Shown one piece after another: positions 1,255-17,696 of a DNA stretch of 30,107 nt (its first letter is position 1; every line of letters starts with the position of its first letter). Both the position numbers and the translations under genes were made by a program. Under the pieces are notes generated by a model. It saw nothing but the letters and a program-made list of their open reading frames with translations. It had not been told where the DNA came from and made no database searches. The DNA is from a virus (lineage: Duplodnaviria; Heunggongvirae; Uroviricota; Caudoviricetes), in IMG/VR virus record IMGVR_UViG_2698536535_000005, positions 1 through 30,107 of that record; one strand, written 5' to 3'.

Positions 1255-1368
1255 ATAAAACCGGGTGATGCAAAAGTAGCCATTTGATTCACAAGGCCAT
1301 TGACGCATCGCCCGGTTAGTTTTAACCTTGTCCACCGTGATTCACGTTCGTGAACATGTCCTTTCAGG

Positions 1369-1444
1369 GCCGATATAGCTCAGTTGGTAGAGCAGCGCAT
1401 TCGTAATGCGAAGGTCGTAGGTTCGACTCCTATTATCGGCACCA
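1369..1444 (+). tRNA. thrW: tRNA-Thr (anticodon CGU)
   Basis: 76-nt sequence GCCGATATAGCTCAGTTGGTAGAGCAGCGCATTCGTAATGCGAAGGTCGTAGGTTCGACTCCTATTATCGGCACCA; acceptor stem GCCGATA/TATCGGC pairs, anticodon loop TTCGTAA gives CGT, encoded CCA end. Confidence 0.93.
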
Positions 1445-1610
1445 TTCTAACGTCTCCCCAAGTCTACTCAAGTATTTAAAAACTTCTTATAATCCGCATG
1501 TTATCGCCCCTTTTAGTCTTTTGACGTCTACTTAAGTACCCCAAAATCTACAGTCAATTGGGGGGACTTTTGGGGGTATTTGCTGTTCGGTTTAGTGGAG
1601 GTACCCCCAA

Positions 1611-2825
1611 GTGAAACTCAATGCCCGTCAAATAGACACTGCCAAGCCAAAAGAGAAGGCTTACAAGCTGGCTGATGGTGGTGGTCTGTATCTCCTGGTA
1701 AAACCTAGTGGAGGAAAATACTGGCGCTTTAAATATCGTGTAGCTGGTAAAGAGAAGCTGTTAGCACTAGGTGTGTATCCTGAAGTTACCTTGGCTGATG
1801 CTCGTGCAAAACGTGAAGAAGCTAAAAGGGGTATCGCTGGGGGTATCGATCCGATGGAAGCGAAACGAGAGGAAAAGATTGCCCGGGAAACGCAGTTAAA
1901 CAATACCTTCAAAGATATTGCCCTTGAGTGGCACAGCAGCAAATTAAAAAAATGGTCTGCTGGTTATGCTTCAGATATCCTCGAAGCCTTCAACAAAGAT
2001 GTGTTCCCTTACATTGGCAAAAAACCAATCGCCGAAATCAAACCACTTGAACTTCTGAATGTGCTGCGACGCATCGAGGGGCGCGGTGCTACAGAAAAAG
2101 CCAAAAAAGTGAGGCAGCGGTGCGGGGAAGTTTTCCGCTATGCAATAGTCACTGGTCGCGCAGAGTATAACCCTGCCCCAGATCTTACTAGCGCGATGCA
2201 AGGCCATGAATCTAATCATTATCCTTTCCTCACAGCCAAAGAATTGCCTGATTTTTTCAAGGCATTGTCCAGTTACTCAGGAAGTGCATTGGTTGTTATG
2301 GCGGCTCGTCTACTGATTATCACTGGTTTGCGAACTGGCGAACTGCGCGGTGCATTATGGGATGAAATCGATCTCAACAAGGCTATCTGGGAGATACCTG
2401 CTTCACGGATGAAAATGCGTCGCCCTCATGTGGTGCCTTTGTCTAAGCAGGCTCTTTCTCTTATTGGGCAGATTAAAGAATTAACTGGTAATTATCCGCT
2501 TATGTTTCCCGGCCGTAATGATCCAAGGAAAACAATGAGCGAGGCTAGCATAAACCAAGTATTTAAACGCATCGGCTATAACGGAAAGGTTACTGGTCAT
2601 GGATTCCGGCACACCATGAGCACGATTTTACATGAGCAGGGCTATAACACCGCGTGGATAGAAACGCAGCTTGCACACGTTGATAAGAACTCAATTCGTG
2701 GCACGTACAATCATGCGCAATATCTGGACGGGCGGCGCGAGATGCTCCAGTGGTACGCCGACTATATGGATTCGCTCGAACATGGCGGTAACGTGGTGCA
2801 TGGCAAGTTCGGAAAATGTGGATGA
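1611..2825 (+). CDS. int: tyrosine recombinase, P4-type integrase (N-terminal arm-binding domain plus catalytic domain)
   Basis: 404-aa ORF, GTG start; N-terminus MKLNARQIDTAKPKEKAYKLADGGGLYLLVKPSGGKYWRFKYR is the typical P4-integrase N-terminal domain; C-terminal HGFRHT and trailing tyrosine region; lies directly next to the tRNA. Confidence 0.9.
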   Translation: MKLNARQIDTAKPKEKAYKLADGGGLYLLVKPSGGKYWRFKYRVAGKEKLLALGVYPEVTLADARAKREEAKRGIAGGIDPMEAKREEKIARETQLNNTFKDIALEWHSSKLKKWSAGYASDILEAFNKDVFPYIGKKPIAEIKPLELLNVLRRIEGRGATEKAKKVRQRCGEVFRYAIVTGRAEYNPAPDLTSAMQGHESNHYPFLTAKELPDFFKALSSYSGSALVVMAARLLIITGLRTGELRGALWDEIDLNKAIWEIPASRMKMRRPHVVPLSKQALSLIGQIKELTGNYPLMFPGRNDPRKTMSEASINQVFKRIGYNGKVTGHGFRHTMSTILHEQGYNTAWIETQLAHVDKNSIRGTYNHAQYLDGRREMLQWYADYMDSLEHGGNVVHGKFGKCG

Positions 2826-2953
2826 CTGGTTGCGTATACAGTAGTAGACTTTGAGCGACGAAAGAAAAGGCTGTGTCTAGGGTCGCTCCCGAAAATCCGT
2901 ACACCTCGACGGACTGGTACAGCCACTACAGTAGAGGACGCTGAGGTGTGCGT

Positions 2954-3751
2954 ATGATTGATATTCATGCCGAATTAAACGAATACAAAAAAGATTTTAT
3001 TTCTTTACGTGAATTTCTTGAGGTCGTGCTTAAGGTCGCTGGTGATGATTATGATGTTTCAGATGTCATAACTTGGATACTCAGGAGAATAAGCGGAGAA
3101 CATATCCGCCTGTACACAGTAAATGAATTTAAGCTGTTGGAATCTTTTTGTAACCCGTATCGGGATGAATTTGATTATGATGTTCTTTATAGAAATCTGA
3201 ATGCGGTTCGGAAACGTGGTTGTTTACCTGGTGAGAGGGATGAAAATGGTTTTCTGGTGTCCGGTTATTGGGAAGATCCCGAATTTGAGAACATTGGATT
3301 TATAAGGGGTGAAATTTTCGCAATTTTTCCCGATGTCCTTGACGCGTTAACGAAGCTGGAAGGCGCTAACTCTTCTGAAAATGACGAGGCACAAGGACGC
3401 GATATTGAAAAGAAAGAGTTGCGTACAGAGGATGATTTATTATCCCAAATCGCAATGCTGGAAAAAGAAAACGCAGAGTTAAGGGCAAGGATAGAGCAGT
3501 TAGAGCAAGAGCGCCCGATACACTTATATAAATACTGGGATAAAGACCCATTAGCTAAGGCTATTGAGATTAGAAACAGAGAGTGGGCCAATTACGATCC
3601 AGAAAATGATTTTGCCACTAGGGGAAATCAAGAAGCGATAACCAGGGAGCTTAAGCAGTGGGGGGCAAGTAATGCACTTGCAACGCTCATAGAGAGGACT
3701 GCCTGCCCTATTAACCGAGACAACAGCCAAAAGAACGCAAAGCCGGATTAA
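2954..3751 (+). CDS. hypothetical protein with central coiled coil (integrase-proximal cargo gene)
   Basis: ORF with GAGG Shine-Dalgarno 7 nt upstream of the ATG at 2954 (track ORF begins at GTG 2948); AT-rich; predicted coiled coil LSQIAMLEKENAELRARIEQLEQER; no recognisable catalytic motif. Confidence 0.6.
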   Translation: MIDIHAELNEYKKDFISLREFLEVVLKVAGDDYDVSDVITWILRRISGEHIRLYTVNEFKLLESFCNPYRDEFDYDVLYRNLNAVRKRGCLPGERDENGFLVSGYWEDPEFENIGFIRGEIFAIFPDVLDALTKLEGANSSENDEAQGRDIEKKELRTEDDLLSQIAMLEKENAELRARIEQLEQERPIHLYKYWDKDPLAKAIEIRNREWANYDPENDFATRGNQEAITRELKQWGASNALATLIERTACPINRDNSQKNAKPD

Positions 3752-3766
3752 CGCACCATACCGCAT

Positions 3767-3807
3767 ACCCTGAGGGTGATTTACTGTTACCCTGAGGGTA
3801 TTTTTTT
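3767..3807 (+). terminator. putative intrinsic terminator formed by two ACCCTGAGGGT boxes followed by a T7 run
   Basis: Boxes at 3767..3777 and 3789..3799 can pair as an 11-bp stem with one central mismatch and an 11-nt loop, followed by TTTTTTT (3801..3807); sits 16 nt after the stop of the 2954..3751 gene. Confidence 0.45.
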
Positions 3808-3909
3808 ATCTTCCCCGTCAATTTTACCATCACCCTTAGGGTAGATTTCCTCCCGATTACCATCACCCTTAGGGTTAATTTCCTTCCGGTAACCATTAGG
3901 CCTGAGGGT
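3767..3909. promoter_or_regulatory. array of five palindromic ACCCTnAGGGT boxes between the integrase-proximal gene and alpA
   Basis: Boxes at 3767, 3789, 3832, 3865 and 3899; spacings 22, 43, 33 and 34 bp are close to multiples of the helical repeat. Confidence 0.5.
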
Positions 3910-3978
3910 ATGAAAATATTCGTTATTTCTGTGCCAGGATTACCTCGTCAAATTGAGTAGACGTTATGAGGTAAATAT

Positions 3979-4176
3979 ATGTCAAATACGCTTATTCGTT
4001 TAACAGAAGTTCAGCGTAGAACTGGATATAGCAAGGCATGGATTTATCGCCTTATGGGGCAAGGTAAATTTCCTGCATCAGTTAAAATTGGCTCGCGAGC
4101 TATTGCTTTCGTTGAGAGTGAAATTGACGAGTGGATTAATCAGCGTATTGCGGAATCACGCGGAACAGCTACCTGA
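3979..4176 (+). CDS. alpA: AlpA-family prophage regulatory protein (excisionase-like HTH regulator)
   Basis: 65-aa protein LIRLTEVQRRTGYSKAWIYRLMGQGKFPASVKIGSRAIAFVESEIDEWINQR, the characteristic AlpA sequence pattern; GAGG Shine-Dalgarno upstream. Confidence 0.85.
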   Translation: MSNTLIRLTEVQRRTGYSKAWIYRLMGQGKFPASVKIGSRAIAFVESEIDEWINQRIAESRGTAT

Positions 4177-4253
4177 TTAAATGGCTACGGGGCTATTTCC
4201 CCCAGCTATCCACCAGCAAATAAAAGTAACTTAATTCGATAGCAGGAGTTTTT

Positions 4254-5054
4254 ATGAAATTTCCAAAAACGCCCGTACAGGGGCGGGGCTTCGTTCGGCC
4301 TGAAAACCAGAATCTGCAAAATTTCGGCGAAATTATCCCGATTATTTCCGGCGTTATTGGCGGGAGTGAAACCACTATTGTTAGCGCCAGAGCGTTACAT
4401 AAGGCGTTAGGTGTAGGGCGCGTTTTCCGTTCGTGGATCAAGGGGCGCATTGAAGAATACGGGTTCACGGAAGGCGTGGATTATGAGGTTGTTGAATATT
4501 TGAGCCGACCCGATCCGGTGAGCGCAAAATCTCGCCAGCAAACCGCTCTTGAGTACATCATCACAGTGAACATGGCGAAAGAACTGGCGATGGTCGAACG
4601 TACCGAACAGGGCCGCGCCGTTCGCCAGTACTTTATCAAATGCGAGGAGGAGCTACACAAGGTTGCGCCTGTTCGTTCCGCAGCGTTACGCCGGGAACTG
4701 AAAGCCCGTATCACAGTTGCCAGCTACTTTAAGCCAATGTGTGCCGCGCTGGAGGCGTACCGGGCTGAACTGGGTAAAAACACACTCCAGCACCACTACA
4801 CCACGGAAGCGAACATGCTGGCGCGTATCGTACTGGGTGGCATGACTGCAAAACAGTGGGCACTGGCGAACGGCATTACAGGCGAACCACGCGACCACAT
4901 GAGCACGTTGCAGCTTGAGCACCTTTCTTACCTTGAGCAGAGCAATATCACGCTGATTGAGTTAGGCCAGGACTACCACCAGCGGAAGGCTGAATTAATT
5001 CGTCTTTCGCAGCGTTGGTTAGCCCGTCGCATGGAGGAAAACAGCCATGTGTAA
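4254..5054 (+). CDS. phage antirepressor-like protein (AntA/AntB-type N-terminal domain, KilAC-like C-terminal region)
   Basis: 266-aa ORF with AGGAG Shine-Dalgarno; N-terminal segment TIVSARALHKALGVGRVFRSWIKGRIEEYGFTEGVDYEV resembles the AntA/AntB antirepressor domain; assignment by eye only. Confidence 0.5.
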   Translation: MKFPKTPVQGRGFVRPENQNLQNFGEIIPIISGVIGGSETTIVSARALHKALGVGRVFRSWIKGRIEEYGFTEGVDYEVVEYLSRPDPVSAKSRQQTALEYIITVNMAKELAMVERTEQGRAVRQYFIKCEEELHKVAPVRSAALRRELKARITVASYFKPMCAALEAYRAELGKNTLQHHYTTEANMLARIVLGGMTAKQWALANGITGEPRDHMSTLQLEHLSYLEQSNITLIELGQDYHQRKAELIRLSQRWLARRMEENSHV

Positions 5055-5771
5055 CGCTCTGACCGTTACAAAAAGAGAAAGCGCCCCGTTGCCGGAGCGC
5101 CTTTGTGAACGAATAGCCTACTGCGCCATATTGCTTACTGTCTACGAGGCAGATTATAGCGTTGTGGTCGCACAGAGTGAAGGCGCTGATCACCGTTACT
5201 ACAGCACGCCAGAAATGCAGAATATTTTGCTGCAAAATGTCGTTGGTCACACTGTCCGGAAAGCAAAAAATTTTGCTGGTGGCGCGACTGATGCGATTTT
5301 GTCAGGTCGCCAGGTGCTGATCAATCTGATGTCTGATTTCGTTCTGGATAAAACAAAGGCGACCGCAGAGGGCCGCCAGTGGGAAAGCTACATACTTGAA
5401 CGCATCGCCAACAATGCCAGATTTGCGGCTGGTGGGCAATGTGTCAGCTTTGCACCAATGACTCTATGTTTAACTGAGGGTCATTATGGTGAATATGCTG
5501 GCTTGCTGGTGGGCTATTCCTGCTCTTTAACATTGCCATGCCGCGATGTTTTCCAGGTATGCGACCCCATTTTTGTGCGCCTGTACTCTTTAAGGAATTT
5601 CTCAAGGATAAACGCACAGGGCGCGAATCTGTTTGACTCATGCTCGTACGCTATCTTTCTGCGCTGTCTTTTCCGTGCCGGTGATGGTGTATTGGTTGAT
5701 TCTTTGTTGGTCATGGCGCAGCCCTGTAAAACGATGCACCGTAGTTCCTCACACCACGGCGCTGGTGATGG

Positions 5772-5951
5772 TTACTCCTGTTCTTTGGCCTTGCGGCGCT
5801 GGCGGTATTCAACTTCTCGCTTTAATGCTGCTGTTACAAACTGCCCTGTACTTTCACCAGGCATTTTTACCGCCTCAACATTGTTCATAACTTCATGCGG
5901 AACCCTTGCCGCAACTGTTTGTGATTTTGCGTTTACTGCTTTTGTCGCCAT
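5772..5951 (-). CDS. ribbon-helix-helix (Arc/MetJ/CopG-like) DNA-binding protein, putative repressor
   Basis: 59-aa minus-strand ORF (below the ORF-track cutoff) MATKAVNAKSQTVAARVPHEVMNNVEAVKMPGESTGQFVTAALKREVEYRQRRKAKEQE; beta-strand/helix/G-x-S/T loop/helix pattern typical of RHH proteins; AAGGGG Shine-Dalgarno 8 nt upstream; palindromic boxes in its promoter region. Confidence 0.5.
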   Translation of the reverse strand: MATKAVNAKSQTVAARVPHEVMNNVEAVKMPGESTGQFVTAALKREVEYRQRRKAKEQE

Positions 5952-5999
5952 GTTGTGTACCCCTTACAAAAAACAAATGCAGTATGCAGGAAAAAAAAT

Positions 6000-6051
6000 A
6001 AGTGTTCAACACTTGACGTGTTTAACACCTAGGCTTAAATTGGTGTTCAAC
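6000..6051. promoter_or_regulatory. three palindromic GTGTTCAACAC-type operator boxes in a divergent promoter region
   Basis: GTGTTCAACAC at 6000..6010, GTGTTTAACAC at 6016..6026, GTGTTCAACAC at 6041..6051; each is a GTGTT/AACAC inverted repeat; located between the minus-strand RHH gene and the rightward early operon. Confidence 0.45.
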
Positions 6052-6150
6052 ACCTTGTTGATGCAAGGTGCAGAAACGACAACGCCCCGCAGTGGTGGCA
6101 CACATGCAGGGCGTCTAACCACCAACGATAGCAAGAGTATCGAGGTAGCT

Positions 6151-6354
6151 ATGAGAAATCATACCACACACCCGCAAGGGCGGGACTCGCACAACCTGAA
6201 TAAATACATCTGGCGTTTTATCGCCCTGAGCACGGCACAACCGCGCGTAATTCACATCGAGGCCACCAGCGAACAGGAAGCACGCCAGCAATCTCCTGAT
6301 GGCTGCGTGATGGTATTCGCAGCCCGTATTCGCCAGGAGGTGGAACATGTGTAA
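6151..6354 (+). CDS. small hypothetical protein (likely first gene of the rightward early operon)
   Basis: Internal ATG of the 435-aa track ORF, preceded by GAGGT Shine-Dalgarno; ends in the EVEHV-stop coupling motif shared with neighbouring genes. Confidence 0.35.
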   Translation: MRNHTTHPQGRDSHNLNKYIWRFIALSTAQPRVIHIEATSEQEARQQSPDGCVMVFAARIRQEVEHV

Positions 6355-6571
6355 TGCAACATGGCCTGATGCAGCGGTAGACGCTATCAAAACGCTGATG
6401 GATTCACTTATTGAGATTTCTGCTATCGCTGGTGTGGCGCATAAACACGCAGCCAGAGAATCAGAATGCATCTCCCATTATTTAGCATTTGTGCAGCTAA
6501 AAGCCGATCAGGCACTGGATAAGGCCGGAAAAATTATCATGGCTGATGTGCAGGAGGTGCACCATGCATAA
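6347..6571 (+). CDS. small hypothetical protein, early operon
   Basis: AGGAGG Shine-Dalgarno; start overlaps the upstream stop in the CATGTGTAA coupling motif. Confidence 0.5.
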   Translation: MCNATWPDAAVDAIKTLMDSLIEISAIAGVAHKHAARESECISHYLAFVQLKADQALDKAGKIIMADVQEVHHA

Positions 6572-6929
6572 CCTGTCAATTTCTGACCTTAACAGCATTC
6601 AGTTTGACGAGAAATTTACCGGGCAGTTGCTGGTCAATGTGGAGAACGGGCGCATAGTGCGTAATTACCACCTGCCGGATGGTGCAATTGCCGGAAGCGT
6701 TGAAGCATTGCTGGAACTGGCGGAACGTGCGCGACTGATTAAGCCGTCAACGAGCCATCACGATGATGATCTGCATTTTACCGGGCGTATGGTGAGTCAC
6801 TACGAAAACGGCGTTGAAGTATCCCGCGAACGGCTGCGTGATGATTGCTGTTTCGGCACACTGCCGGAATTTATCGAGTTGCTGACCAGTTGCGGTTATC
6901 AGGTCATTCAGGGGGGTAAACATGCGTGA
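6564..6929 (+). CDS. hypothetical protein, early operon
   Basis: Start moved to the ATG preceded by CAGGAGGTG (track ORF begins at 6546); overlaps neighbours by start/stop coupling. Confidence 0.5.
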   Translation: MHNLSISDLNSIQFDEKFTGQLLVNVENGRIVRNYHLPDGAIAGSVEALLELAERARLIKPSTSHHDDDLHFTGRMVSHYENGVEVSRERLRDDCCFGTLPEFIELLTSCGYQVIQGGKHA

Positions 6930-7155
6930 TGATCGTTTTAATTCCCTGAAACGGGAATTTGATGGCGCACCGGAAGATGCAGCGGGCGCATTGTTGAGCG
7001 TTGCTGACATGATGAAAGCTGCATATTTTCTTATCAATACCAGTGGCTACAAGTCAGAGGGTGAAATGATTCTTAGTATTGCGTCGGACTATGCGGAATA
7101 TGTGGCAGAGACGCGTTACAGAAGAAAATTCACGGAGGATGTAAGCCATGCATAA
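6922..7155 (+). CDS. small hypothetical protein, early operon
   Basis: GGGGGG Shine-Dalgarno; overlapping stop/start with both neighbours. Confidence 0.45.
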   Translation: MRDDRFNSLKREFDGAPEDAAGALLSVADMMKAAYFLINTSGYKSEGEMILSIASDYAEYVAETRYRRKFTEDVSHA

Positions 7156-7348
7156 TCATGAAGCGCATGTACCCGTAGTGCTTAATGTGCCAGATGATTT
7201 CACCGGACGCGTACTGGTTTACCTGGATAAAGGGAAAGTGAAATCACAATGCCGACTGAAAAGTAATGAGATTGTTGGTTCTCCTGAATTTTTTTCTGAA
7301 CTTTGTATTCGTGCGGAAATAAAACCGGAACTGCTGACAGGAAAATAA
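7148..7348 (+). CDS. small hypothetical protein, early operon
   Basis: GGAGGA Shine-Dalgarno; overlapping start/stop with the previous gene. Confidence 0.45.
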   Translation: MHNHEAHVPVVLNVPDDFTGRVLVYLDKGKVKSQCRLKSNEIVGSPEFFSELCIRAEIKPELLTGK

Positions 7349-7352
7349 AACC

Positions 7353-7643
7353 ATGAAAAAGAAAAATTCTGGCTTTACTGCCAGCGGCCTCTCTCGGCCT
7401 GAAATCCGCCCCGGTGATATTTCCCGGGACACCAGACGCGGGGGACGGGTGGTTATTCGTCACGTTACGCCAGGCAATATCACCTACCGCCGTGAGGCTT
7501 ACGAATATGACTGCGTAATGCCGCGCCGTCAGTTTGATCGTGATTTTATTCTGGTGGAAAACAAACAACAGGCAGTGGCGAGACGTGCAGCCACGAATAT
7601 TAAAAAAATCCGGGCAATGTTGGTTGCGGGAGGTAAGAAGTGA
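7353..7643 (+). CDS. hypothetical basic protein, early operon
   Basis: 96-aa ORF beginning 5 nt after the previous stop; its stop overlaps the GTG start of the primase gene. Confidence 0.5.
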   Translation: MKKKNSGFTASGLSRPEIRPGDISRDTRRGGRVVIRHVTPGNITYRREAYEYDCVMPRRQFDRDFILVENKQQAVARRAATNIKKIRAMLVAGGKK

Positions 7644-9445
7644 AAAACGCACCGAGTCTAAAATATCAGCCGAAGGATAAATTCACTGAGGTAATCATTT
7701 TTGCCGGGACGGATGCTTACGCCCATGCTCAACACTGGATTGAAAGTGAAGGACGAAAACACGGCGATAACGTGCCTCCTGTTTACCTGGGGCCAAAGCA
7801 ACTGGCAGACCTGGCGAATATCCGCATTATTGACGAGAAACGCCGTTTTGCGCGTGTCTATATCGCGGGGGAGATAGAGCCAATCCAGATCAATACTATC
7901 GCTGAAAAGCTGGCGCTGGCTGGCGTACAGGAGGCGAAATTATACAAAGGTATCACCGACCAGGAACCGGAGAACTGGCGCGACTACCTGCAACGGATCC
8001 GCGAACAGGCTGAGCACGGGGAAGTTTCAGTGATGAAATTAGCTACAAAAAATAGTGGTCTACCCAAGCCTGCATTAAATCAGATGGGAGCCAGCCAGAG
8101 AGGGGAAGTGTTACTTGAACATTATGGAGGAGCACTGGCGATAAATGATGATTCTGATGTAGTTCACCATTACAACGGAATTGTTTGGGAGCCTGTATCT
8201 GATAAGGAACTCCAGCGGTCTATGGCGAAGATTTTTATTGATGCCGAAATTAGTTATTCGCAAAACGCCATTAAATTTGCCGTAGAGACAATGAAATTGA
8301 GTCTACCTGTTATGGGGGGAGCGGACAGAAATCTTATTGGGTTCAGTAACGGTGTTTTTGATATCAGGACAGGAAATTTTCGGGAACACAACAAAAATGA
8401 CTGGTTGTTAAATGCCAGTGAATTACCGTTCAGCCCGCCAGAAGAGGGGGAAACGCTGGCAACACATGCGCCGAATTTCTGGAAGTGGTTGCGTCGTTCG
8501 GTGGCGGATAATGCTCGTAAAGCGGATCGCGTACTGGCGGCATTATTCATGGTACTGGCGAACCGGTACGACTGGCAGTTATTCCTTGAGGTAACGGGGC
8601 CGGGCGGAAGCGGTAAAAGTGTGATGGCGGAGATTTGTACCATGCTGGCGGGTAAGGCCAACACAGTATCGGCAAGCATGAAGGCTCTGGAAGACGCAAG
8701 GGAACGCGCGTTAGTAGTTGGCTTTTCGCTGATTATCATGCCGGATATGACTCGCTACGCTGGCGATGGTGCAGGAATTAAGGCAATTACTGGCGGCGAC
8801 AAGGTGGCAATTGATCCGAAACATAAAGCCCCCTACTCCACACGTATTCCGGCAGTAGTGCTTGCGGTAAACAATAACGCCATGTCATTCAGTGACCGAA
8901 GCGGGGGGATCTCGCGTCGTAGGGTGATATTTAATTTCTCTGAGGTCGTACCGGAGAACGAACGCGATCCCATGCTGGCGGAAAAGATAGAAGGCGAACT
9001 GGCGGTAGTGATTCGCCATTTGCTAACACGATTTACCGACCAGGACGAAGCTAAAAGACTACTTTATGAGCAGCAAAAATCAGAAGAAGCGCTGTTGATA
9101 AAGCGCGAAGGTGATTCACTGGTGGACTTTTGCGGCTATCTGATGTCGTTGGTTAAATGTGAAGGAATGATGGTGGGCAATGCGGAAATAGTGCCATTTA
9201 GCCCGAGGCGATACCTGTATCATGCTTATTTAGCCTATATGTCAGCGCATGGCCTGGGAAAACCAGTATCACTGACACGCTTTGGTACTGATATGCCAGG
9301 AGCTATGGCGGAATACGGAAAGGAGTATAAGCGGGCTAAATGCACTAAAGGCCCGGATAAAGGGCGAGTGATAACAAATGTTCTGTTAGATGATGATGCT
9401 GATGGCTGGTTGCCAGCAGCTACAGGGATTAACGACAGAACATAA
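7640..9445 (+). CDS. P4-family phage/plasmid primase-helicase (C-terminal P-loop NTPase domain)
   Basis: 601-aa ORF, GTG start after GGGAGG; Walker A VTGPGGSGKS and downstream Walker-B-like hydrophobic-DM stretch; overall resemblance to P4 alpha C-terminal / pri-rep proteins of satellites; iteron array immediately downstream. Confidence 0.75.
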   Translation: MKNAPSLKYQPKDKFTEVIIFAGTDAYAHAQHWIESEGRKHGDNVPPVYLGPKQLADLANIRIIDEKRRFARVYIAGEIEPIQINTIAEKLALAGVQEAKLYKGITDQEPENWRDYLQRIREQAEHGEVSVMKLATKNSGLPKPALNQMGASQRGEVLLEHYGGALAINDDSDVVHHYNGIVWEPVSDKELQRSMAKIFIDAEISYSQNAIKFAVETMKLSLPVMGGADRNLIGFSNGVFDIRTGNFREHNKNDWLLNASELPFSPPEEGETLATHAPNFWKWLRRSVADNARKADRVLAALFMVLANRYDWQLFLEVTGPGGSGKSVMAEICTMLAGKANTVSASMKALEDARERALVVGFSLIIMPDMTRYAGDGAGIKAITGGDKVAIDPKHKAPYSTRIPAVVLAVNNNAMSFSDRSGGISRRRVIFNFSEVVPENERDPMLAEKIEGELAVVIRHLLTRFTDQDEAKRLLYEQQKSEEALLIKREGDSLVDFCGYLMSLVKCEGMMVGNAEIVPFSPRRYLYHAYLAYMSAHGLGKPVSLTRFGTDMPGAMAEYGKEYKRAKCTKGPDKGRVITNVLLDDDADGWLPAATGINDRT

Positions 9446-9472
9446 TACGAAATTTATAAGCTGAAACGTAAA

Positions 9473-9811
9473 GGTAGACGGTTGGTAGACAGATTCACTT
9501 AACCCTCTACCAACCATCTACCAATTAATATTTTGAATTATAAAGATATTTTCAATGTGGTAGAGAGGTAGACAGTTATTTCTATATTCCTAAACCACGG
9601 GGGGTATATAAAAAACAGATAGTTAAGGGGGTATTTTTTAAATTTCTCTTTTAACTGTCTACACTGTCTACCATTTAGTAAAAATCATTAATTATCAATG
9701 TATTAATGCGGTAGACCGTTGGTAGACAGTTTGCAGATTGTTTTTTTGTTATGTGTTAATAACATTAAATAAATCAATCAATTATATCGGTAGACAGTTG
9801 GTAGACAGTTG
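9473..9811. repeat. iteron array, putative replication origin of the element
   Basis: At least ten copies of GGTAGAC(AGTT) in both orientations (e.g. 9473, 9484, 9567, 9708, 9721, 9788, 9800; inverted at 9504, 9515, 9655, 9664) interspersed with AT-rich stretches, directly 3' of the primase gene. Confidence 0.7.
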
Positions 9812-9816
9812 TAACG

Positions 9817-10359: not shown

Positions 10360-10643
10360 TTCACGACAGCAAAGCGGAAGCACTGGAAGCGCGTGGTCTG
10401 TACCGGAGAGCGGCGGCGCGGTGGGCTGAGGTCATCATGCTGGCGAATGATGACAAGGCACGGGAACAGGCGGCAAAACGTCGCGCGGAATGTATCCACA
10501 AGGCAGCATGCCCACCAGCAAGGCAGGATAATTTCGGGGAGATGCGCGAAACCATCAGCCGGGCACATGCCGGGATGGGATTACATCAGCCCAATGGTGA
10601 GGCATTCAGGAAATACCAAAAAAAGAACAATTGTAGTCAGTAA
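10356..10643 (+). CDS. PerC-like small transcriptional regulator (tentative)
   Basis: 95-aa ORF with AAGGAG Shine-Dalgarno; N-terminus MIHDSKAEALEARGLYRRAAARWAEV resembles the PerC/Pch family N-terminal pattern as I recall it. Confidence 0.4.
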   Translation: MIHDSKAEALEARGLYRRAAARWAEVIMLANDDKAREQAAKRRAECIHKAACPPARQDNFGEMRETISRAHAGMGLHQPNGEAFRKYQKKNNCSQ

Positions 10644-10777
10644 CAGAGGATGGGATTCTCTTGGTTTTTTGTTGATGCTTTCTGAGGAAATCTACTACGT
10701 TGCTGAGCAGATGAATATTCAATTGCATCTGGGTTCCTGATAAGATTAATCTGAATATTTTCATTTGGAATAGGGAT

Positions 10778-11920
10778 ATGAATAAAACTTTAATTGCAAC
10801 ATTAGTCGGTATAGTAATGTTAACCGGATGTGGGCCAGAAGAGTTAACTCCAGAACAGAAACAGGAAGTAGCGGCTCTTAAAGCTGAACTGTCGCAAACG
10901 GAAGGTGAAATATCAGCAGCTAAGGAAGTTGACCAGCAGTTTTCTGGTGGGTTGATAAAAAATCTGACAACAGCAAGACTGGAAATATTAGGAACTAATA
11001 AAGCGCTTTTGGAACAGCGTATTAATGCTATTGAATCAGGTGCCAAAATTGATGTTGTTGTATCTGGAGTAAAACCTGATCCTGAGCTTGCGGCTTCAAT
11101 TAAAACTGAAATTGACAGCTTAGATGCAAAAATCAACGAAGCCAAAGCTGATGCTCGTCAGTATAGTGGTGGTCTGATAAAGGTACTAAAATTATCTACT
11201 GTTGCCACTGAAGAGCAGACCATGGCAATGTTGCAGCAAAAGTACCTCACAGCCAAGTATGGCCTCGCTGAAGTTAAGCTGGCATCAGTACAAGCTAATG
11301 ACGCAAAAAACAGTACTGAAACGGAAGTAACAGCCAAAAATTCCCAAGAGCAACTTCCTTTACTCCCGCCAGCGGATGGTCCGTTTGGCTTAGAAGCCGG
11401 TCTTACACAGAAAAACATCGAAGATATGATCGGTGCTAAGCTCAAGCCACTACCAGACAGTGTGAATCTGTATACTTCTGATAAATTACCGAAGCAAAAC
11501 GCAGATTTTGAAATGTATGGTTTGCTGATCTCCCCGAAAGCTGGTTTATGTCAAATACGGGCTTTAGGAAAAAATATTGATACTGATAGCTATGGATTGG
11601 CTCTTAAATCCAAGTTTGAAGAATTGAGTAATTCTTTAAGTTCTCTGTATGGAAAGGCTGATACTACAGACTTTTTGCTGGCTGGTTCAATTTGGAAAGA
11701 TCCTCAGGACTGGATGAGGGGGCTAAACAAAAAAGAACGCTTCTTATCTGCCACATGGAAGGGAACAAAAGAAATACCATTAAAAAACAATATCGATACT
11801 ATCTCTATTGAGGCCAGAGCGAACAATTCCACTCAGGGATATGTCTATCTGCAGTACTCATTTACAAATGACGAAATTTGTCAGGCAGAAATTGAAGGGG
11901 CGAAAAAAAGTTCCCTTTAA
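10778..11920 (+). CDS. lipoprotein with coiled-coil region and internal repeat
   Basis: Signal peptide MNKTLIATLVGIVMLTGC with LTGC lipobox; repeated motif QFSGGLIKNL / QYSGGLIKVL; AT-rich; intrinsic terminator directly downstream. Confidence 0.7.
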   Translation: MNKTLIATLVGIVMLTGCGPEELTPEQKQEVAALKAELSQTEGEISAAKEVDQQFSGGLIKNLTTARLEILGTNKALLEQRINAIESGAKIDVVVSGVKPDPELAASIKTEIDSLDAKINEAKADARQYSGGLIKVLKLSTVATEEQTMAMLQQKYLTAKYGLAEVKLASVQANDAKNSTETEVTAKNSQEQLPLLPPADGPFGLEAGLTQKNIEDMIGAKLKPLPDSVNLYTSDKLPKQNADFEMYGLLISPKAGLCQIRALGKNIDTDSYGLALKSKFEELSNSLSSLYGKADTTDFLLAGSIWKDPQDWMRGLNKKERFLSATWKGTKEIPLKNNIDTISIEARANNSTQGYVYLQYSFTNDEICQAEIEGAKKSSL

Positions 11921-11931
11921 ACAATCCGTGC

Positions 11932-11960
11932 AAAGCCCCTTAGTAAGGGGCTTTTATATA
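11932..11960 (+). terminator. intrinsic terminator
   Basis: Perfect inverted repeat AAAGCCCCTTA/TAAGGGGCTTT (11932..11954) followed by a T-rich tail. Confidence 0.55.
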
Positions 11961-11984
11961 TTAATGTTCAACGGGGGGGATTAG

Positions 11985-12308
11985 ATGAAAGATAATCTAG
12001 AAAAACTAATTGAAAATACTTTAAAAGATATTCTATTAGCTAATGCTGCTCTAACATTCATTTTTGCAATACCAATGGCTATTATCAGTAGGCATGGGAT
12101 GGGTATCACAATCTGGTTTATAACTGTGCTCATTGCACCTGCTCTGTGTGCAGTAGGTGCATGGCTTGTATCTCGAACATTCGGTCATGCTGAGGAGTTC
12201 TTTCATCGTCGGTGGGCTAAGCGAATCTATGTTTTTTATACTCTTGCGGCTGCCGAGTTTTTGCTTGTGTACTCAATCGCGCAAATAATGAAAAATCTGA
12301 TGAAATAA
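11985..12308 (+). CDS. small integral membrane protein
   Basis: 107-aa ORF with two or three long hydrophobic segments (ALTFIFAIPMAIIS, ITIWFITVLIAPALCAVGAWLV, IYVFYTLAAAEFLLVYSI); G-rich Shine-Dalgarno. Confidence 0.5.
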   Translation: MKDNLEKLIENTLKDILLANAALTFIFAIPMAIISRHGMGITIWFITVLIAPALCAVGAWLVSRTFGHAEEFFHRRWAKRIYVFYTLAAAEFLLVYSIAQIMKNLMK

Positions 12309-12711
12309 TTAACAAGTTATTATCATGGGGTTTGTGGCTGTTAACCTGCAGTGAGGCGACAATCGTGTATTTATAAAAACTTCCCCTTTTCACTCCCCGC
12401 TGTTTCTTCTGCTATTTCCTTTATGTTTGCATGCAGCAACATCTACCATACCTTTGCAGAAAAATCAGAGCATTTAGTGCCGAAGGTTGGTTTATTGATG
12501 CTTTTTGTTTCATTTATTGCAATTATTGTCATTCAGAAGGGATCATCATGAAAAATCACGGAGTAAAGCCAGTTTTACTTTCCCGGGGGCAGATCGAAGC
12601 CCTGTAACGTATCCAGGCCGAAAAGCGTCAGAAATCTGTGCTTGGTGTGGCACCGTCGATTCATGTTATTGCCCGGCAACTGATGGATAAGGCACTTAAA
12701 GAGGTGAGGCT

Positions 12712-12984
12712 GTGAAATTAAATATCAGTGTGGATAAACGCCAGCTATGGCAGAAAAAAGAGAACAGCGAGGCATTCAGGGCTTTGCTGGTGGAAAATCT
12801 TCGGCACCGGTTCAGTGGAGAGTTGCCTGATGCACTGGGGAAGAAACTGGAATCCCTGACGGTGGAAATTGGCGATTATGGCTTTGTTGATGTTGAAAGC
12901 ACGACTGCCAACACAGAAATCGTAAAGCAGGTCGTCAATGATGTAATGAAAACCACGCTTAGCCAGCCATCCTGGCGCAACTGA
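12712..12984 (+). CDS. hypothetical protein
   Basis: 90-aa ORF with GTG start after GAGGTGAGG; no recognisable motif. Confidence 0.35.
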   Translation: MKLNISVDKRQLWQKKENSEAFRALLVENLRHRFSGELPDALGKKLESLTVEIGDYGFVDVESTTANTEIVKQVVNDVMKTTLSQPSWRN

Positions 12985-13083
12985 ATCAGTAAGGGGCGGT
13001 TATTGCCCCTTTCCTCCATACCCACAACGCATTCCCTTTTCGCATGAAATTATTTTTTATCGTATATGCATGAGGTGAGTTAC

Positions 13084-13608
13084 ATGTTGATGAGTAAAGC
13101 CGAATACGCCAAATACAAAGGCGTAAGCCGCCAGACAGTTTACGACTGGATCGAGAAAGGCGAAGTGATCATGTCTGGCAAAAAAATTGATGTGGAGGCG
13201 ACAGAGCAGCGGAACAGCCCACCGGCACAGGGGAAAGACACCGTTTCTGAAATGTGGCCAGAAAGAACGCTGGAAATGACGTGGGGCGAGTTCTGGAAAG
13301 CAGTTAAGGCCAGAGACGGTAAAATCCCTGCGCCAGTAACGGACGACGACATACAGCAACGTGTGCTGGATGCAGCCGGGGAATTAGACTGGGAAGTGCA
13401 ATTTCTTGATGATGGCGGGATTTGGATGGATGACGGCGATGCTGAGTTTTATTTCGAGCAATATGATCTCAGGCAGAATGCCGAACTGGTGATTGGTACG
13501 CTGCGACGTGAGGTCTGTTATGTGGCTGATGCTTGTCCTGACGAGCTGGATAACTGGAGCGAAGCCGGACTAAACGCCCTGGCTGCATGGGAAAAAACAG
13601 GTCATTAA
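13084..13608 (+). CDS. HTH DNA-binding protein with acidic C-terminal domain (possible small-terminase-like or regulatory protein)
   Basis: Start taken at the ATG preceded by GAGGTGA (track ORF starts 13066); N-terminal MSKAEYAKYKGVSRQTVYDWIEKGEV is a phage-type helix-turn-helix; repeat array immediately downstream. Confidence 0.55.
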   Translation: MLMSKAEYAKYKGVSRQTVYDWIEKGEVIMSGKKIDVEATEQRNSPPAQGKDTVSEMWPERTLEMTWGEFWKAVKARDGKIPAPVTDDDIQQRVLDAAGELDWEVQFLDDGGIWMDDGDAEFYFEQYDLRQNAELVIGTLRREVCYVADACPDELDNWSEAGLNALAAWEKTGH

Positions 13609-13615
13609 CGGCCGC

Positions 13616-13821
13616 AAAAAGTGTCAAGTTGAGCAGCTTGCCAGGTTGGCACTTTACACTCTGAACACGAAAAAGTGTCAACCTCGCTGTAAACCCTGCC
13701 ATTACTGGCCTTGAGCCATATTTACCACGCCAGAAACCCGTGAAAACCGCGAAAAGTGTCAAGTTGTCATGCTTAGAAATGCCAGGGTTTTTCGCGAAAA
13801 AGTGTCAAGTGTGTCAACCTG
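13616..13821. repeat. array of AAAAGTGTCAA boxes (putative protein-binding sites)
   Basis: Five GTGTCAA cores at 13621, 13675, 13756, 13803 and 13811, most preceded by an A-run, between the HTH gene and the next small ORF. Confidence 0.6.
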
Positions 13822-13850
13822 CGATATTAAGATTTCCTAAGGTGTAAACC

Positions 13851-14045
13851 ATGACCATCACCGAAGCCGATTTGCTGGATATAGTGCGCAGCGTGGCTGG
13901 AATTAGCGAATTGCCAAAGAAAGCCAGATTTGCCGATTATGCGGACGTGGTAGCTGCTGCAATGCAGCTAGAAGATCATGCTCCGAATGAAGGAGATTTG
14001 CTGCATATCCGCATCCGATCGGCGGCGATACTGGCAGCCCGTTGA
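13851..14045 (+). CDS. small hypothetical protein
   Basis: 64-aa ORF; weak support only. Confidence 0.3.
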   Translation: MTITEADLLDIVRSVAGISELPKKARFADYADVVAAAMQLEDHAPNEGDLLHIRIRSAAILAAR

Positions 14046-14399
14046 CGCCACCAGCATAGAGAGAACGCCGTGCCTTACGAGTGGAAGAAACCGGACATGC
14101 TGCGGCGATAACCCGTTGATTAAAAGACGGCTCAAAATTGAGCCGGGTAGCAGTTTGTCTGATTTATGCGTTTAGTTGTTGATATTGCCGATGACGAAAA
14201 ATTGCACTCTGTAGCTAGTGGGCGTTTATGTTGAAAACTGCCGATTCTGATAGGCTTTTATCATGCACTTGCATGAAAACTGCTCTGTGTAGCGGGCAGG
14301 CCTGCTGGGGAGAGCATTGCGCGCTTTAGTAGCAATAAAACACATCAATAAGGCTTTTTATTTTCTTGTATTATAAAATTATACTTATTATCTTGTTGA

Positions 14400-14429
14400 T
14401 TGACAGATAAAAACAAGGGATATGCATAA
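14400..14429 (+). promoter_or_regulatory. candidate sigma70 promoter for the 14433..16852 operon
   Basis: TTGACA (14400..14405), 18-bp spacer, CATAAT (14424..14429); so close to the ATG that either the transcript is near-leaderless or another promoter is used. Confidence 0.25.
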
Positions 14430-14432
14430 TAA

Positions 14433-15122
14433 ATGAACAAATCACCTACTGAGATAATTAATATGCTAAGCGATAAGTTCAATAGTAACTTTCGTGAATG
14501 GCAGGGCATACAAGATAAAAAATTAGATAAAGTAATTATCTCAATTTTCACTCTTAACACGATTGCTGAAATTTTGAATAAAAAGAAAACATCAGTTCAT
14601 CATGATGTTTGTATTAAAATTTTTAGTGAGATTATTGCTGATACGTCATCTTCTTTATATCTTTCTGCCTGTGCCATAGATAAACCAGCTAATATTGTTC
14701 TAAGGAGAGTTTTGGAACTAGGTGTCGCATCTATTTATCTTTGGGATATGCCTCATGTTGTATATTCTTGGAAAAATCATGATGAAGACTTAAGTTTCAG
14801 TGATATGTTGAAGCATATAACAAATCAAGGCTATATAGACTACTTCACAGAAAATGAGAAGATAGGAGGGAAAGTATGTGTTATTGATATGAGAAGAGCA
14901 CAGAAAATTTATGGACAATTAAGTGATATCGTTCATGGAAAAATAACCTCATTTGAAACTGATTTGCCTAATAAGTTCACTTTTGAAAGTGAAGATTGGG
15001 AGAGGTTCATAGGTCTGGCTGAGGTTGTTTTGGGTATGATAATTAATTCCAATATTGTTCGTCATAAGATAAGAAAAGAAGTGCTATCTTCATTTCCTAA
15101 ATCTAGTGAGGTAGTTTTATAA
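14433..15122 (+). CDS. hypothetical protein, component A of candidate two-gene system
   Basis: 229-aa ORF, strongly AT-rich; stop overlaps the start of the downstream ATPase gene (TAATG); no recognisable catalytic motif. Confidence 0.7.
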   Translation: MNKSPTEIINMLSDKFNSNFREWQGIQDKKLDKVIISIFTLNTIAEILNKKKTSVHHDVCIKIFSEIIADTSSSLYLSACAIDKPANIVLRRVLELGVASIYLWDMPHVVYSWKNHDEDLSFSDMLKHITNQGYIDYFTENEKIGGKVCVIDMRRAQKIYGQLSDIVHGKITSFETDLPNKFTFESEDWERFIGLAEVVLGMIINSNIVRHKIRKEVLSSFPKSSEVVL

Positions 15123-16852
15123 TGTCTATGTTAGACACTGAGTTATTACATGCAGCACGTACCGAAGATCTTGAGTTGAAACAGGTCAAACAACTGGCTG
15201 TTCTTGGTGAGTTTGAAAAAGATGTTGTAGCAAAACTAAAAATAGCGGGCTCTCATCTGATTCAGGGTGCCAGAGGAATTGGAAAGTCTATGCTTCTAAG
15301 AGCGGCAGAAGCTGAATTAGATAGTGATTTTCCTGTTAAAAAGATTGTGGGGGTATATGTTAATTTCAAAACCAGTACTTTGCTGGAAGGGGTTAAAGCT
15401 GACAATAAAAATGCATTTCAGATATGGGTAAGCGCTAAGTTACTACAAGCTTTGTACGAAAAGTTGATATTTTTAGATGTCATTCGTGACAATAATAGCA
15501 GTGATCCATTTCAAAGAATTTTTGGGATTAAAACTATAACTGGAATGAAAGATGCTCTACAATCTAAAATTCATCTGCTTCAAAGGTTATCAAGAGATCC
15601 TTCTTCAGATAAATTGTTGAATGAAATTGGAGAGGATTTTTTAGATAAGGTTAATGATATAAGTTATGTAAATGACATCATCAAGGAGATAATTCAAGAA
15701 TACCAACTTAATAGAATTGTTTTTTTATTTGATGAGGCTGCTCATACCTTTATACCAGAACAGCAGGAAATATTCTTCGAAATATTTAAATTGCTTCATG
15801 GCGGTAAAATTGCAGTTAAGGCGGCTGTATATCCGTCAATTACATCGTATGGTAAAAATTTTGAAGTTGGTCAAGATGCCATGATGATAAACCTCGGAGG
15901 ATACGAAACTGGAAATATTGGGCGGGAACGAACACGACGTTTATATCGTGATCTATTAGATAAACGGGTCACACAAGGAGCAGCAAAAAAGAGAATATTG
16001 GCTAAAGGTGATTTGCTAGATCAATGTATTCATCTTTCATCCGGAAACCCTAGAGCATTTCTCCATTTATTTAATAAAGTATATGAGAAAGGTTATACTG
16101 AAAGAGATCTTTTAACTTGCACTCAGGATTATGTCAATCAAGAATTATTACCTTATCATTTAGGGCTTTCAAAACGATTACCTAAGTATTCTCACCATGT
16201 TCGCATTGGACTTGATATTCTTAGGGAGTGTATTATCCCTGAGCTTAGATTGAAAAATAACAGAGAGAAAAAGACTCAAACCCAATCTGCTTTTTTTGTT
16301 CTTCCTCCCGTTATTTCTCCAAATCTTAGATTGTCTCTAGATTTGCTTTGTTATTCTGGTGTTCTTTCCAAGCAAGGGTCCGTGAAGATGTCTAATCGAA
16401 AATCGGGTCAGCGCTACATGGTTAATTTATCATTACTTTTCACTGAAAAAGCATTCGTATCTAATAAGTTCGGGGAGATAATAACACTATTATCTCTCGC
16501 TGATTATAAAGAATTTGGCGCAGCAGATTCTGAATTAGAGCGTTTTTTAGAAAAATTGAAAGAATCAGCTGATGAGTGTCAAACTTGTTCCGCTGAGTTA
16601 CCTGGAGATGCGAAGTTTTGTCCTAAGTGTGGGACACCTGTACCAACAAGGTCAATTGTAGGACAACTTCTTGATGATCCGGTTAGTTGCTTGTCAATTA
16701 GTAACGCAATATGCGACCGAATAAAAGAAACCTATCCTAAAGTGGGTGATATCGTTCACTGTTCGAGGGATGATCTGAAAAAAATACCGTACATTAAAAA
16801 TGTTAGGTCAAAAATAATCAAGAACGCAGCGGATGAATATATCTCAGGCTAA
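15122..16852 (+). CDS. Orc1/Cdc6-like AAA+ ATPase with C-terminal zinc ribbon and HhH (RNA polymerase alpha-CTD-like) domain, component B
   Basis: 576-aa ORF; Walker A GARGIGKS, Walker B IVFLFDEAAH, sensor-2-like SGNPRAF; C-terminal CQTC-x11-CPKC zinc ribbon; last ~60 aa resemble the RpoA alpha-CTD; GAGG Shine-Dalgarno; terminator downstream. Confidence 0.8.
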   Translation: MSMLDTELLHAARTEDLELKQVKQLAVLGEFEKDVVAKLKIAGSHLIQGARGIGKSMLLRAAEAELDSDFPVKKIVGVYVNFKTSTLLEGVKADNKNAFQIWVSAKLLQALYEKLIFLDVIRDNNSSDPFQRIFGIKTITGMKDALQSKIHLLQRLSRDPSSDKLLNEIGEDFLDKVNDISYVNDIIKEIIQEYQLNRIVFLFDEAAHTFIPEQQEIFFEIFKLLHGGKIAVKAAVYPSITSYGKNFEVGQDAMMINLGGYETGNIGRERTRRLYRDLLDKRVTQGAAKKRILAKGDLLDQCIHLSSGNPRAFLHLFNKVYEKGYTERDLLTCTQDYVNQELLPYHLGLSKRLPKYSHHVRIGLDILRECIIPELRLKNNREKKTQTQSAFFVLPPVISPNLRLSLDLLCYSGVLSKQGSVKMSNRKSGQRYMVNLSLLFTEKAFVSNKFGEIITLLSLADYKEFGAADSELERFLEKLKESADECQTCSAELPGDAKFCPKCGTPVPTRSIVGQLLDDPVSCLSISNAICDRIKETYPKVGDIVHCSRDDLKKIPYIKNVRSKIIKNAADEYISG

Positions 16853-16859
16853 AGAAAAG

Positions 16860-16883
16860 CCCCATGTAAATGGGGTTTTTTTT
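16860..16883 (+). terminator. intrinsic terminator
   Basis: CCCCAT-GTAA-ATGGGG hairpin (6-bp stem, 4-nt loop) followed by T8, 8 nt after the ATPase stop codon. Confidence 0.8.
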
Positions 16884-16892
16884 AATATGGGT

Positions 16893-17284
16893 TTATACTT
16901 TTAATGCCCGCCAATGCATTAATTCAATTCTTTGTATTAAATAATTAGATCTATTATAAGCTCTTCTGACTTCATTTCTATCAATATGAGATAATGACGT
17001 CTCTATTGCATCTGAATTAAACCCTGCTTCATTTAAAGTTTTACTCGCAATAGAACGCATCCCATGGTAACTAGCTTTCCACCGTAACCAATTCATTTAA
17101 GAGCAGCATTAGCCGTTTGACTATTCATTGGTTGCATAGGATCGTTTCTGCTAGGGAATACATATTCTCGATGACTACTAATAGGTTTCATCACATCCAG
17201 AAATTCTAATGCCTGTGGAAATAAATGAGCAATGTGTTTCCGGTTAGCCTTCATCCGTTCGGTGGGAATTGCGGAGGGCAGCAT
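16893..17284 (-). pseudogene. integrase remnant (C-terminal part of a P4-type tyrosine recombinase, frameshifted and 5'-truncated)
   Basis: Two adjacent minus-strand ORFs (16893..17096, 17093..17284) together align with the C-terminal ~130 aa of the integrase at 1611..2825 (FPSRNDP vs FPGRNDP; HIDRNEVRRAYNRSNYL vs HVDKNSIRGTYNHAQYL); no N-terminal half is present. Confidence 0.7.
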
Positions 17285-17680
17285 AAATGCAGAGGGAAAT
17301 CTGCAAATCCTAGGCTGGCCTTGCCATAAAGCGAAGACGGCGCGGGAGCATACAAGATGATAATTATTATTAGTAACAAAGGGGAGGGCGGGTCAAATCT
17401 CTGTACCCCTAGCTGTTCTGGACCGCCTGCCTCGTCAAATTTTTACACCCGCAAAATTAAAAAAAATACTTCACGCTGGTGGTTATCCTTGGGCATCCAC
17501 TAGCCTTTCATCATTGACTGCTGGTGAGGCTGAGACTCGAAGAAAAAGAGTGCTAGAGAGTCGGTTTTTGCACAGTTTGGGGTAAGGGAAAATTTATTGG
17601 GGGTACATTTGGGGGTATATATAAAAATGCAATGTAAAAATGTCATTAAATATCAATGCGATTGTTGTTTGTGTTTTGTT

Positions 17681-17696
17681 CCTATTATCGCACCAT
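17681..17696. repeat. attR core: degenerate direct repeat of the thrW 3' end
   Basis: CCTATTATCGCACCAT matches tRNA positions 1429..1445 (CCTATTATCGGCACCAT) except for one deleted G. Confidence 0.6.

Follow-up and report, generated by a model that had tools for sequence, protein, structure and literature searches.

The phage-inducible chromosomal islands (PICIs) of Gram-negative bacteria, such as EcCICFT073 and EcCIEDL933, are elements of ~15 kb with the gene order int-alpA-replication, rightward transcription, a PerC-like gene, an iteron origin after the primase gene, and no structural genes, and their attachment sites have been described as never used by prophages (PMC6092414). AlpA is their master activator (PMC6092414, PMC11773190). 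The characterized member closest to the locus described here is EcCIMP1, a 19,963-bp PICI located in a tRNA-Thr gene that is flanked by proA and yagU in E. coli MP1. Its circularization depends on a helper phage (Kapi1) as well as on the EcCIMP1 integrase and alpA, and it is transduced by Kapi1; its flanking repeats were published as the 10-nt sequence TCCTATTATC (PMC11773190). Here, we analyzed a stretch of 30,107 nucleotides from the Caudoviricetes virus record IMGVR_UViG_2698536535_000005 (positions 1 to 30,107, referred to as the window here). We are confident that positions 1446-17696 are one integrative Gram-negative PICI-type satellite island of ~16.25 kb at the 3' end of the tRNA gene thrW, a confidence that covers both the identity of the island and its boundaries. 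The island, called element A in the following, is an EcCIMP1-type thrW PICI whose replication module and cargo differ from those of EcCIMP1, and it lies in tandem with a CP-933H-like element (element B).

Element A shares with EcCIMP1 the integration site, the left arm, the boxes of the P arm, and the attR core (TTCCTATTATCG-CACCAT), and EcCIMP1 also lies in tandem with another thrW island. The repeats published for EcCIMP1 are found in the window at 1428-1437 and 17680-17689, and the right end shows the EcCIMP1-type module of two GGGGGTA boxes ~80 and 68 bp before a core with a single G. At the protein level, the integrase (96.5% identity over 402 amino acids), AlpA (81%), AntA (59%), and PerC (47%) have counterparts in EcCIMP1, but no other window protein matched it and the replication and accessory genes differ. 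EcCIMP1 is larger, with a TOPRIM/DUF927 primase, a second alpA gene, and P22-like genes for ejection proteins. Compared with Gram-negative PICIs in general, element A has int (1611-2825), alpA (3979-4176), and the primase gene (7640-9445) in the same order and all on the plus strand, 11 iterons that form a candidate origin beside the primase gene, and a size of 16.25 kb, slightly above the typical range of 12 to 15 kb. No capsid, terminase, tail, other structural, or lysis gene was found among the scanned open reading frames (ORFs) of the island (20 against Pfam and 10 against PHROGs, with about ten left without an assignment), except for one weak match to a small-terminase helix-turn-helix (HTH). 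As for the attachment site, the thrW core of element A is also used by element B, a phage-like element with genes for capsid, tape-measure-like, and Dit-like proteins that may count as a prophage or as another satellite. The island had no match in the INPHARED phage collection, and a literature search retrieved no paper that names thrW together with PICI.

Boundaries of the island at thrW

ARAGORN predicted a single tRNA gene in the window, an intact 76-nt tRNA-Thr(CGT) gene on the plus strand (1369-1444) downstream of proA (1-1254). We assigned this integration target to thrW from the prediction together with the related loci, in all of which a tRNA-Thr gene is annotated after proA. The 3' end of the gene, CCTATTATCGGCACCAT (1429-1445), has an imperfect second copy, CCTATTATCGCACCAT, at 17681-17696. 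Sequence identity reaches one base further to the left (T at 1428 and 17680), and with this base the far copy reads (T)CCTATTATCG-CACCAT (17680-17696); the T after CACCA, at 1445 and 17696, lies outside the tRNA. From pattern searches and locus comparison, we define the attL core as TCCTATTATCGGCACCAT (1428-1445, plus strand), which is the thrW 3' end plus one base and carries a GG allele, and the attR core as TCCTATTATCG-CACCAT (17680-17696, plus strand), which carries a single-G allele. Searching both strands of the window with a gapped pattern (gap of 0 to 2 bases) yielded exactly these two sites, whereas an ungapped search with up to three mismatches matched the tRNA copy alone, showing that the copies differ by an insertion or deletion and not by substitutions. 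The far copy could in principle be a chance match unrelated to the island end, for which nothing but the short length of the repeat speaks; this is extremely improbable, given that a second match to the gapped pattern appeared in none of 100 dinucleotide-preserving shuffles and that synteny breaks in other genomes fall exactly at 17696. The sequence-only reading of this DNA, which proposed that the tRNA 3' end recurs once in the window and that such a repeat is unlikely by chance, was correct on both counts. An intact tRNA gene at one end, a direct partial copy at the other, and an integrase gene inside also correspond to a tRNA island in the Islander/Williams scheme.

The block 1446-17696 is intact in three different flank contexts, at 99.6 to 99.9% identity. 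Strain SCU-316 gave a single alignment to window positions 1-17696 (99.6%) that ends exactly at 17696, beyond which its sequence is chromosomal (TTAAATC..., followed by a LysR gene and the pao operon). Strain WWCOL-236 has the order thrW-core-B-core-A-variant core-chromosome: window positions 1426-17696 were matched at 99.94% downstream of another element of 13.2 kb, with an intact core on the left, and positions 17680-18555 match the DNA directly after thrW. Given that A and B are found in either order, each bounded by cores, A (1446-17696) and B (17697 onward) are separate modules. Furthermore, an artificial empty site, built by joining the thrW end of the window to the right flank of SCU-316, was recovered without interruption from 948 of the 5426 complete E. 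coli genomes. Together, SCU-316, WWCOL-236, and the empty site bear out the earlier proposal of a thrW-integrated element of ~16.3 kb between attL (1429-1445) and attR (17681-17696). The ends of the island are thereby fixed to the base, from 1446 to 17696 with one copy of the core included, and a separate element begins after 17696.

Candidate integrase boxes in the attachment-site arms

With one mismatch allowed, TTGGGGGTA has 12 matches in the window, seven of which adjoin the two cores (four at one, three at the other). The P' arm (1537-1610) contains four TTGGGGGTA-like boxes, at 1537 and 1602 on the minus strand and at 1558 and 1570 on the plus strand, and the box at 1602 abuts the GTG start codon of int. 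In the P arm (17576-17617, plus strand), there are three TTGGGGGTA boxes, and the two perfect ones (17597 and 17609), located 12 bp apart, are those of the EcCIMP1-type module described above. Their spacing and their distance to the core are kept in the relatives and in 33 Enterobacteriaceae species representatives, while the sequence between the boxes varies. This position and conservation suggest that the boxes are arm-type integrase binding sites, and those of the P' arm are candidates for arm-type Int sites as well as for an int autoregulation region. Given that the boxes are conserved at this distance from the core, ~17600-17696 is a proper attachment-site arm of the IntA integrase family and not, as the refuting condition set by the sequence-only reading would have it, sequence unrelated to the island end. 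Around the core, an inspection by eye for symmetric binding sites of the core type gave nothing convincing.

The left end of the island resembles the KplE1/IntS and P4 Int systems, in which the integrase gene also lies directly downstream of a tRNA gene in the same orientation, with binding sites that overlap its start, and autoregulation of intS has been shown for the KplE1 arrangement (PMC2951348). These systems differ from the window island in the tRNA genes used (argW and leuX) and in the type of element, and autoregulation of the window int gene is putative.

The single-G core as an allele of the island family

The single-base difference between the two cores had been interpreted as a deletion in attR with a possible cost to excision, and neither part of this interpretation was supported. 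The single G is the majority, element-linked allele of the island family, and EcCIMP1, whose attR in the MP1 locus (...ATGGGGGTACTTTTGGGGGTATC...GTGTATTGTTCCTATTATCG-CACCAT) has the same single-G core, excises and is transduced (PMC11773190). G is present in every E. coli A-type right arm that we examined, a sample that comprises, besides the arm of the window, those of six annotated loci, five contigs of viral or metagenomic origin, and two additional tandem arrays. For one A-type arm with a chromosomal flank, we found G in 56 of 56 instances across all complete genomes (55 exact, one with a substitution) and GG in none, and 24 of the 33 bona fide arms from the species representatives have G, with GG in the other 9.

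Same-flank comparisons show which side determines the allele. Next to a truncated A-type remnant adjoining the vat island, the core is GG in 5/5 loci with thrW upstream and also with a B-type arm upstream (L106 and L113 in our locus set), but G in 6/6 loci with an A-type arm upstream, representing at least four different arms. Likewise, when the flank is the left arm of B, the core is GG with thrW upstream (4/4) and G with an A-type arm upstream (3/3; the window, L118, and L119). Since the right flank is the same and the allele is set by the upstream element, the G travels with the P arm of the island, which would place strand exchange by IntA to the right of this base. Based on these alignments, we consider it reasonably probable that IntA exchanges strands within the last 6 to 8 bases, (G)CACCAT(T), at the discriminator-CCA end. 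The comparisons thus predict a testable strand-exchange position for a widespread integrase, given that the left arm and int are present at full length in 505 of the 5426 complete E. coli genomes and as a 500-bp remnant in ~570 further ones. This position would agree with the "asymmetric 3'-end" sublocation to which Williams reportedly assigned P4-type integrases in 2002.

According to this model, TTCCTATTATCG with its single G would be the island's own attP sequence on the P-arm side rather than a decayed tRNA fragment, and through cycles of integration and excision the tRNA gene would keep GG while the island keeps its single G. A right-hand crossover would yield an attP of ...GTTTTGTTCCTATTATCGCACCATTCTAACG (single G) and a repaired site of thrW...ATCGGCACCAT-CAAGAAAATC (GG). 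In the window, A would have entered thrW when a CP-933H-like B was already resident there, coming to lie upstream of B in the order thrW-core(GG)-A-core(G)-B. If EcCIMP1 is a guide, a helper phage would switch on AlpA, upon which Int would excise the island, the primase and the iteron origin would replicate it, and helper particles would package it. The single G is thus best explained, as far as alignments can tell, as the attachment-site allele of the island family, compatible with mobility, although a lower efficiency than that of GG is conceivable. More generally, an imperfect tRNA repeat need not indicate decay by default, and the imperfect copy seen here would be a native attP allele.

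The general rule for mapping tRNA islands (Islander, PMC4383910) would assign the alleles the other way around: the island would have brought the perfect tRNA 3' end, and 17681-17696 would be the original chromosomal end, displaced and with one G lost, possibly in a decaying island. This would agree with GG in the attP of the only two circular relatives found and with a metagenome-assembled genome (MAG) whose thrW has a single G, as if excision had put a mutated fragment back. However, an A-type island entering a GG site should then leave GG at attR, which was never seen, and at the same flank, be it the remnant or B, A-type arms always have G and thrW or B-type arms always GG. Given the G in so many A-type arms, in all instances of the arm followed through the complete genomes and in most of the species representatives, this explanation needs recurrent identical deletions, and EcCIMP1 excises with the identical single-G attR (PMC11773190). 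We therefore regard a displaced chromosomal fragment as improbable, the G appearing to follow the arm and not the flank, and retain the single G as the island's own allele.

Several observations nevertheless weigh against this reading or limit it. First, both circular relatives carry GG in attP. The contigs of these relatives, L007 (IMGVR_UViG_2751185930_000001) and L107 (PPYF01371357.1), close into circles through exact overlaps of their ends (77 and 79 nt) and have the arrangement P arm-core-P' arm, showing that the IntA-type family forms free circles. The arm of L007 had no match in E. coli genomes, other viral contigs, or the examined loci, and thus no integrated copy of its lineage was found with which to compare attP and attR. 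Second, ~8% of the B-type attR sites have G (~34 G and ~389 GG among 443 sites with a chromosomal flank), e.g., in O104:H4 strain 2009EL-2050 (position 31161 of L104), which requires an extra step; speculatively, B may have integrated into an A-type attR with strand exchange further to the left, after which A was lost. Third, many genomes that share an arm type are probably clonal, so that the counts overstate the number of independent events. Fourth, in the Buttiauxella MAG mentioned above (DASXGN010000041.1; L015, 2064-2137), thrW itself has the single G, so that the tRNA is 74 nt long and its acceptor stem is shortened, and is followed by a left-arm-like remnant with no integrase. This could be a consensus error of the MAG or a deletion between cores via their shared left part, but we count it as a misfit because it is not predicted by a strictly right-hand crossover. 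Fifth, none of the 5426 complete genomes of E. coli has the junction from A to B seen in the window, and the order of insertion is a reconstruction, although a different A-type island followed by B is found in two other genomes. Finally, mobility of the window island is suggested by analogy, as excision, induction by a helper (phage Kapi1), specific packaging, high-frequency transfer, and interference with the helper are known only for its relative EcCIMP1 (PMC11773190).

Relationship to P4-like and plasmid-like elements

The circular relatives also bear on the type of element. The break in the L007 contig falls at the very point from which attP and attL share sequence, which would be expected of a culture that contained the integrated and the circular form side by side, and L107 is without ~220 bp that include the first ~40 integrase codons, which suggests episomal maintenance. 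Instead of a helper-dependent PICI, element A could be a satellite of the P4 kind or a plasmid-like integrative element able to replicate alone as a circle. In common with satellite P4 it has a P4-type integrase, integration into a tRNA 3' end, and a possible episomal state in relatives. Its D5/P4-like primase resembles the P4-family primase C-terminal domain (TIGR01613) at 95.1 bits, below the curated cutoff of 108.7. In contrast to P4, neither homologues of Psu, Sid, Delta, and Epsilon nor other capsid-size or late-gene regulators were detected among the 20 scanned ORFs (Pfam and PHROGs). Furthermore, the order int-alpA-antA...primase-ori-perC matches that of E. coli PICIs (PMC6092414, PMC11773190), and EcCIMP1, the nearest tested relative by integrase, is helper dependent. 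We thus consider an autonomous element rather unlikely and keep the assignment of element A to the EcCIMP1-type PICIs.

Genes and candidate replication origin of the island

All genes of the island backbone lie on the plus strand. IntA is a 404-amino-acid P4-type tyrosine integrase (Pfam domains Arm-DNA-bind_3, Phage_int_M, and Phage_integrase). It is followed by a 265-amino-acid protein (2954-3751) with no significant match in Pfam, PHROG, PADLOC, or NCBIfam, the AlpA-family regulator (PF05930, E value of 2e-19), and an AntA/AntB-type antirepressor (4254-5054; PF08346, phrog_5817). The intergenic stretch before alpA holds two 33-bp repeats in tandem (TTACCATCACCCTTAGGGTAGATTTCCTCCCGA, 88% alike) at 3824-3889, possibly a regulatory site for the AlpA master regulator. 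The next ORF (5047-6354) has 435 codons with an Icd-like cell-division-inhibitor region at its end. The full 435-amino-acid protein is annotated in many NCBI records, with homologues of 405 to 487 amino acids and down to 73% identity, whereas in the RefSeq copies that we fetched the last 67 or 134 codons are annotated alone, together with two small antisense genes. We regard the long form as probably real and the annotation as inconsistent.

Five small overlapping ORFs (6347-7643), delimited from the RefSeq annotation of identical copies, end with a DUF4222 protein (7353-7643; PF13973) and lead to the 601-amino-acid primase-helicase (D5_N, DUF5906, and Pox_D5 in Pfam; phrog_864, E value of 3e-156). 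Directly after the primase gene lies the candidate replication origin (9473-9810), in which the 11 iterons with the sequence GGTAGACNGTT surround an AT-rich stretch. This interval contains 11 of the 12 matches to GGTAGACNGTT in the window, versus 1.0 expected. Downstream, we identified a ProQ/FinO-family protein (9829-10359; PF04352), the PerC-family regulator (10356-10643; PF06069), and five ORFs (10778-14045) that are mostly without an assigned function in scans with Pfam, PHROG, and NCBIfam. One of their products, a 174-amino-acid protein (13084-13608), has an N-terminal HTH weakly similar to those of excisionases and small terminases (small terminase E value of 4e-06).

Cargo and mosaic right end

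The backbone that is common to many E. coli genomes stops at ~13823, so that the first 13.8 kb of the island are common while the cargo and right arm are found in only 4-5 genomes. The cargo (14433-16852, plus strand) is a low-GC (~35%) pair of genes for a 229-amino-acid protein with no family match and a 576-amino-acid ORC/Cdc6-like AAA ATPase with a C-terminal zinc ribbon. Homologues of the ATPase with the same length occur across phyla at 55 to 70% identity, and a homologue of the 229-amino-acid partner is encoded directly upstream of the ATPase in Paenibacillus (38% identity) and Desulfobacter (47%). PADLOC returned no significant match for the cargo, and the only NCBIfam match, to the anti-phage protein DS41_1, was far below threshold (27 bits versus a cutoff of 370). 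The pair may be an undescribed cross-phylum anti-phage defense system, and this rare two-gene cassette of a variable right end is a reasonable candidate for defense screening. The cargo copy of SCU-316 (26433-28852 of L001) is 98.9% identical but annotated as three short hypothetical proteins, and its locus is 21 bp longer than that of the window, which indicates frameshifting indels or sequencing errors of the assembly.

Between the cargo and the right arm lies a fossil piece of a P4-type integrase gene of foreign origin (16905-17269, minus strand), detected by tblastn and annotated as a pseudogene in relatives. It corresponds to integrase residues 262-383, is ~40% identical to IntA, frameshifted, and interrupted by an internal stop codon, and it travels with the cargo in each of the four genomes in which it occurs. 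It may be a trace of the route by which the cargo was acquired. We also considered the fragment as a B-type integrase remnant beside its own attR, but tblastn identified it as P4-type and unrelated to the integrase of B (IntB).

The right-end module of cargo, integrase fragment, and right arm is thus mosaic and rare, which speaks against a single unit. The true right end of the island may have been lost, and ~16.9-17.7 kb would then be the remnant of an older, different element and the whole might not move as a unit. Such a composite would fit the inverted foreign integrase fragment, the restriction of cargo and right arm to so few genomes, the halt of the common backbone at 13823, and the genome of strain TUM9757, in which cargo and right arm are joined to a different middle region. 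We nevertheless consider it unlikely, because the right arm bears the two boxes of the family, placed as in EcCIMP1 at the canonical distance to the core, and because the entire block 1446-17696 recurs in the three flank contexts described above. In addition, exchange of right-end modules is usual in the family; strain cS108a, for example, combines another cargo and another arm with the same single-G core. These data favor 1446-17696 as one island.

The tandem neighbor at thrW

Element B, delimited by comparison with WWCOL-236, in which it spans ~13 kb, is a second thrW element outside the island (17697-30107) and runs past the window end. A B-type left arm directly follows thrW in ~500 complete E. 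coli genomes. B is probably of the CP-933H type, which is named with thrW-intH in PMC2951348. The CP-933H element of EDL933 (O157:H7) is similar to B, and not to the island, in its location at thrW and in having its integrase gene at the far end on the opposite strand.

If these readings are joined, two unrelated integrase families would share a thrW core of 17 to 20 nt but exchange strands at different positions, the IntA type at the discriminator-CCA end, with a mimic of the tRNA stem offset by one base on the P side, and the CP-933H type further upstream, and the cargo of the island would in addition be an undescribed two-gene anti-phage system. We put this combined view forward only tentatively. 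If true, satellites could stack in either order at one tRNA gene, each keeping its own att allele, and the G or GG state would be a readable record of insertion order.

Within the window, B encodes a resolvase/invertase (19006-19563, minus strand), an O-like replication initiator (21479-22072), a homologue of major capsid protein E (24992-26020), a tape-measure-like protein (26405-28246), and a Dit-like protein (28294-28971), and no terminase or portal gene was seen in this part. Its non-P4 tyrosine integrase gene extends from 29052 past the window end, and the encoded part shares 98.5% identity with the WWCOL-236 copy (residues 81-424). The attR of B is predicted ~370 bp beyond the window end. 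B may be either a defective prophage or a satellite that carries capsid and tail genes. Upstream of the O-like initiator gene, five to six copies of an iteron of ~22 to 23 bp (CCCCNACAGAANNNTGTTA) are located at 20087-20223 and are likely the origin of element B.

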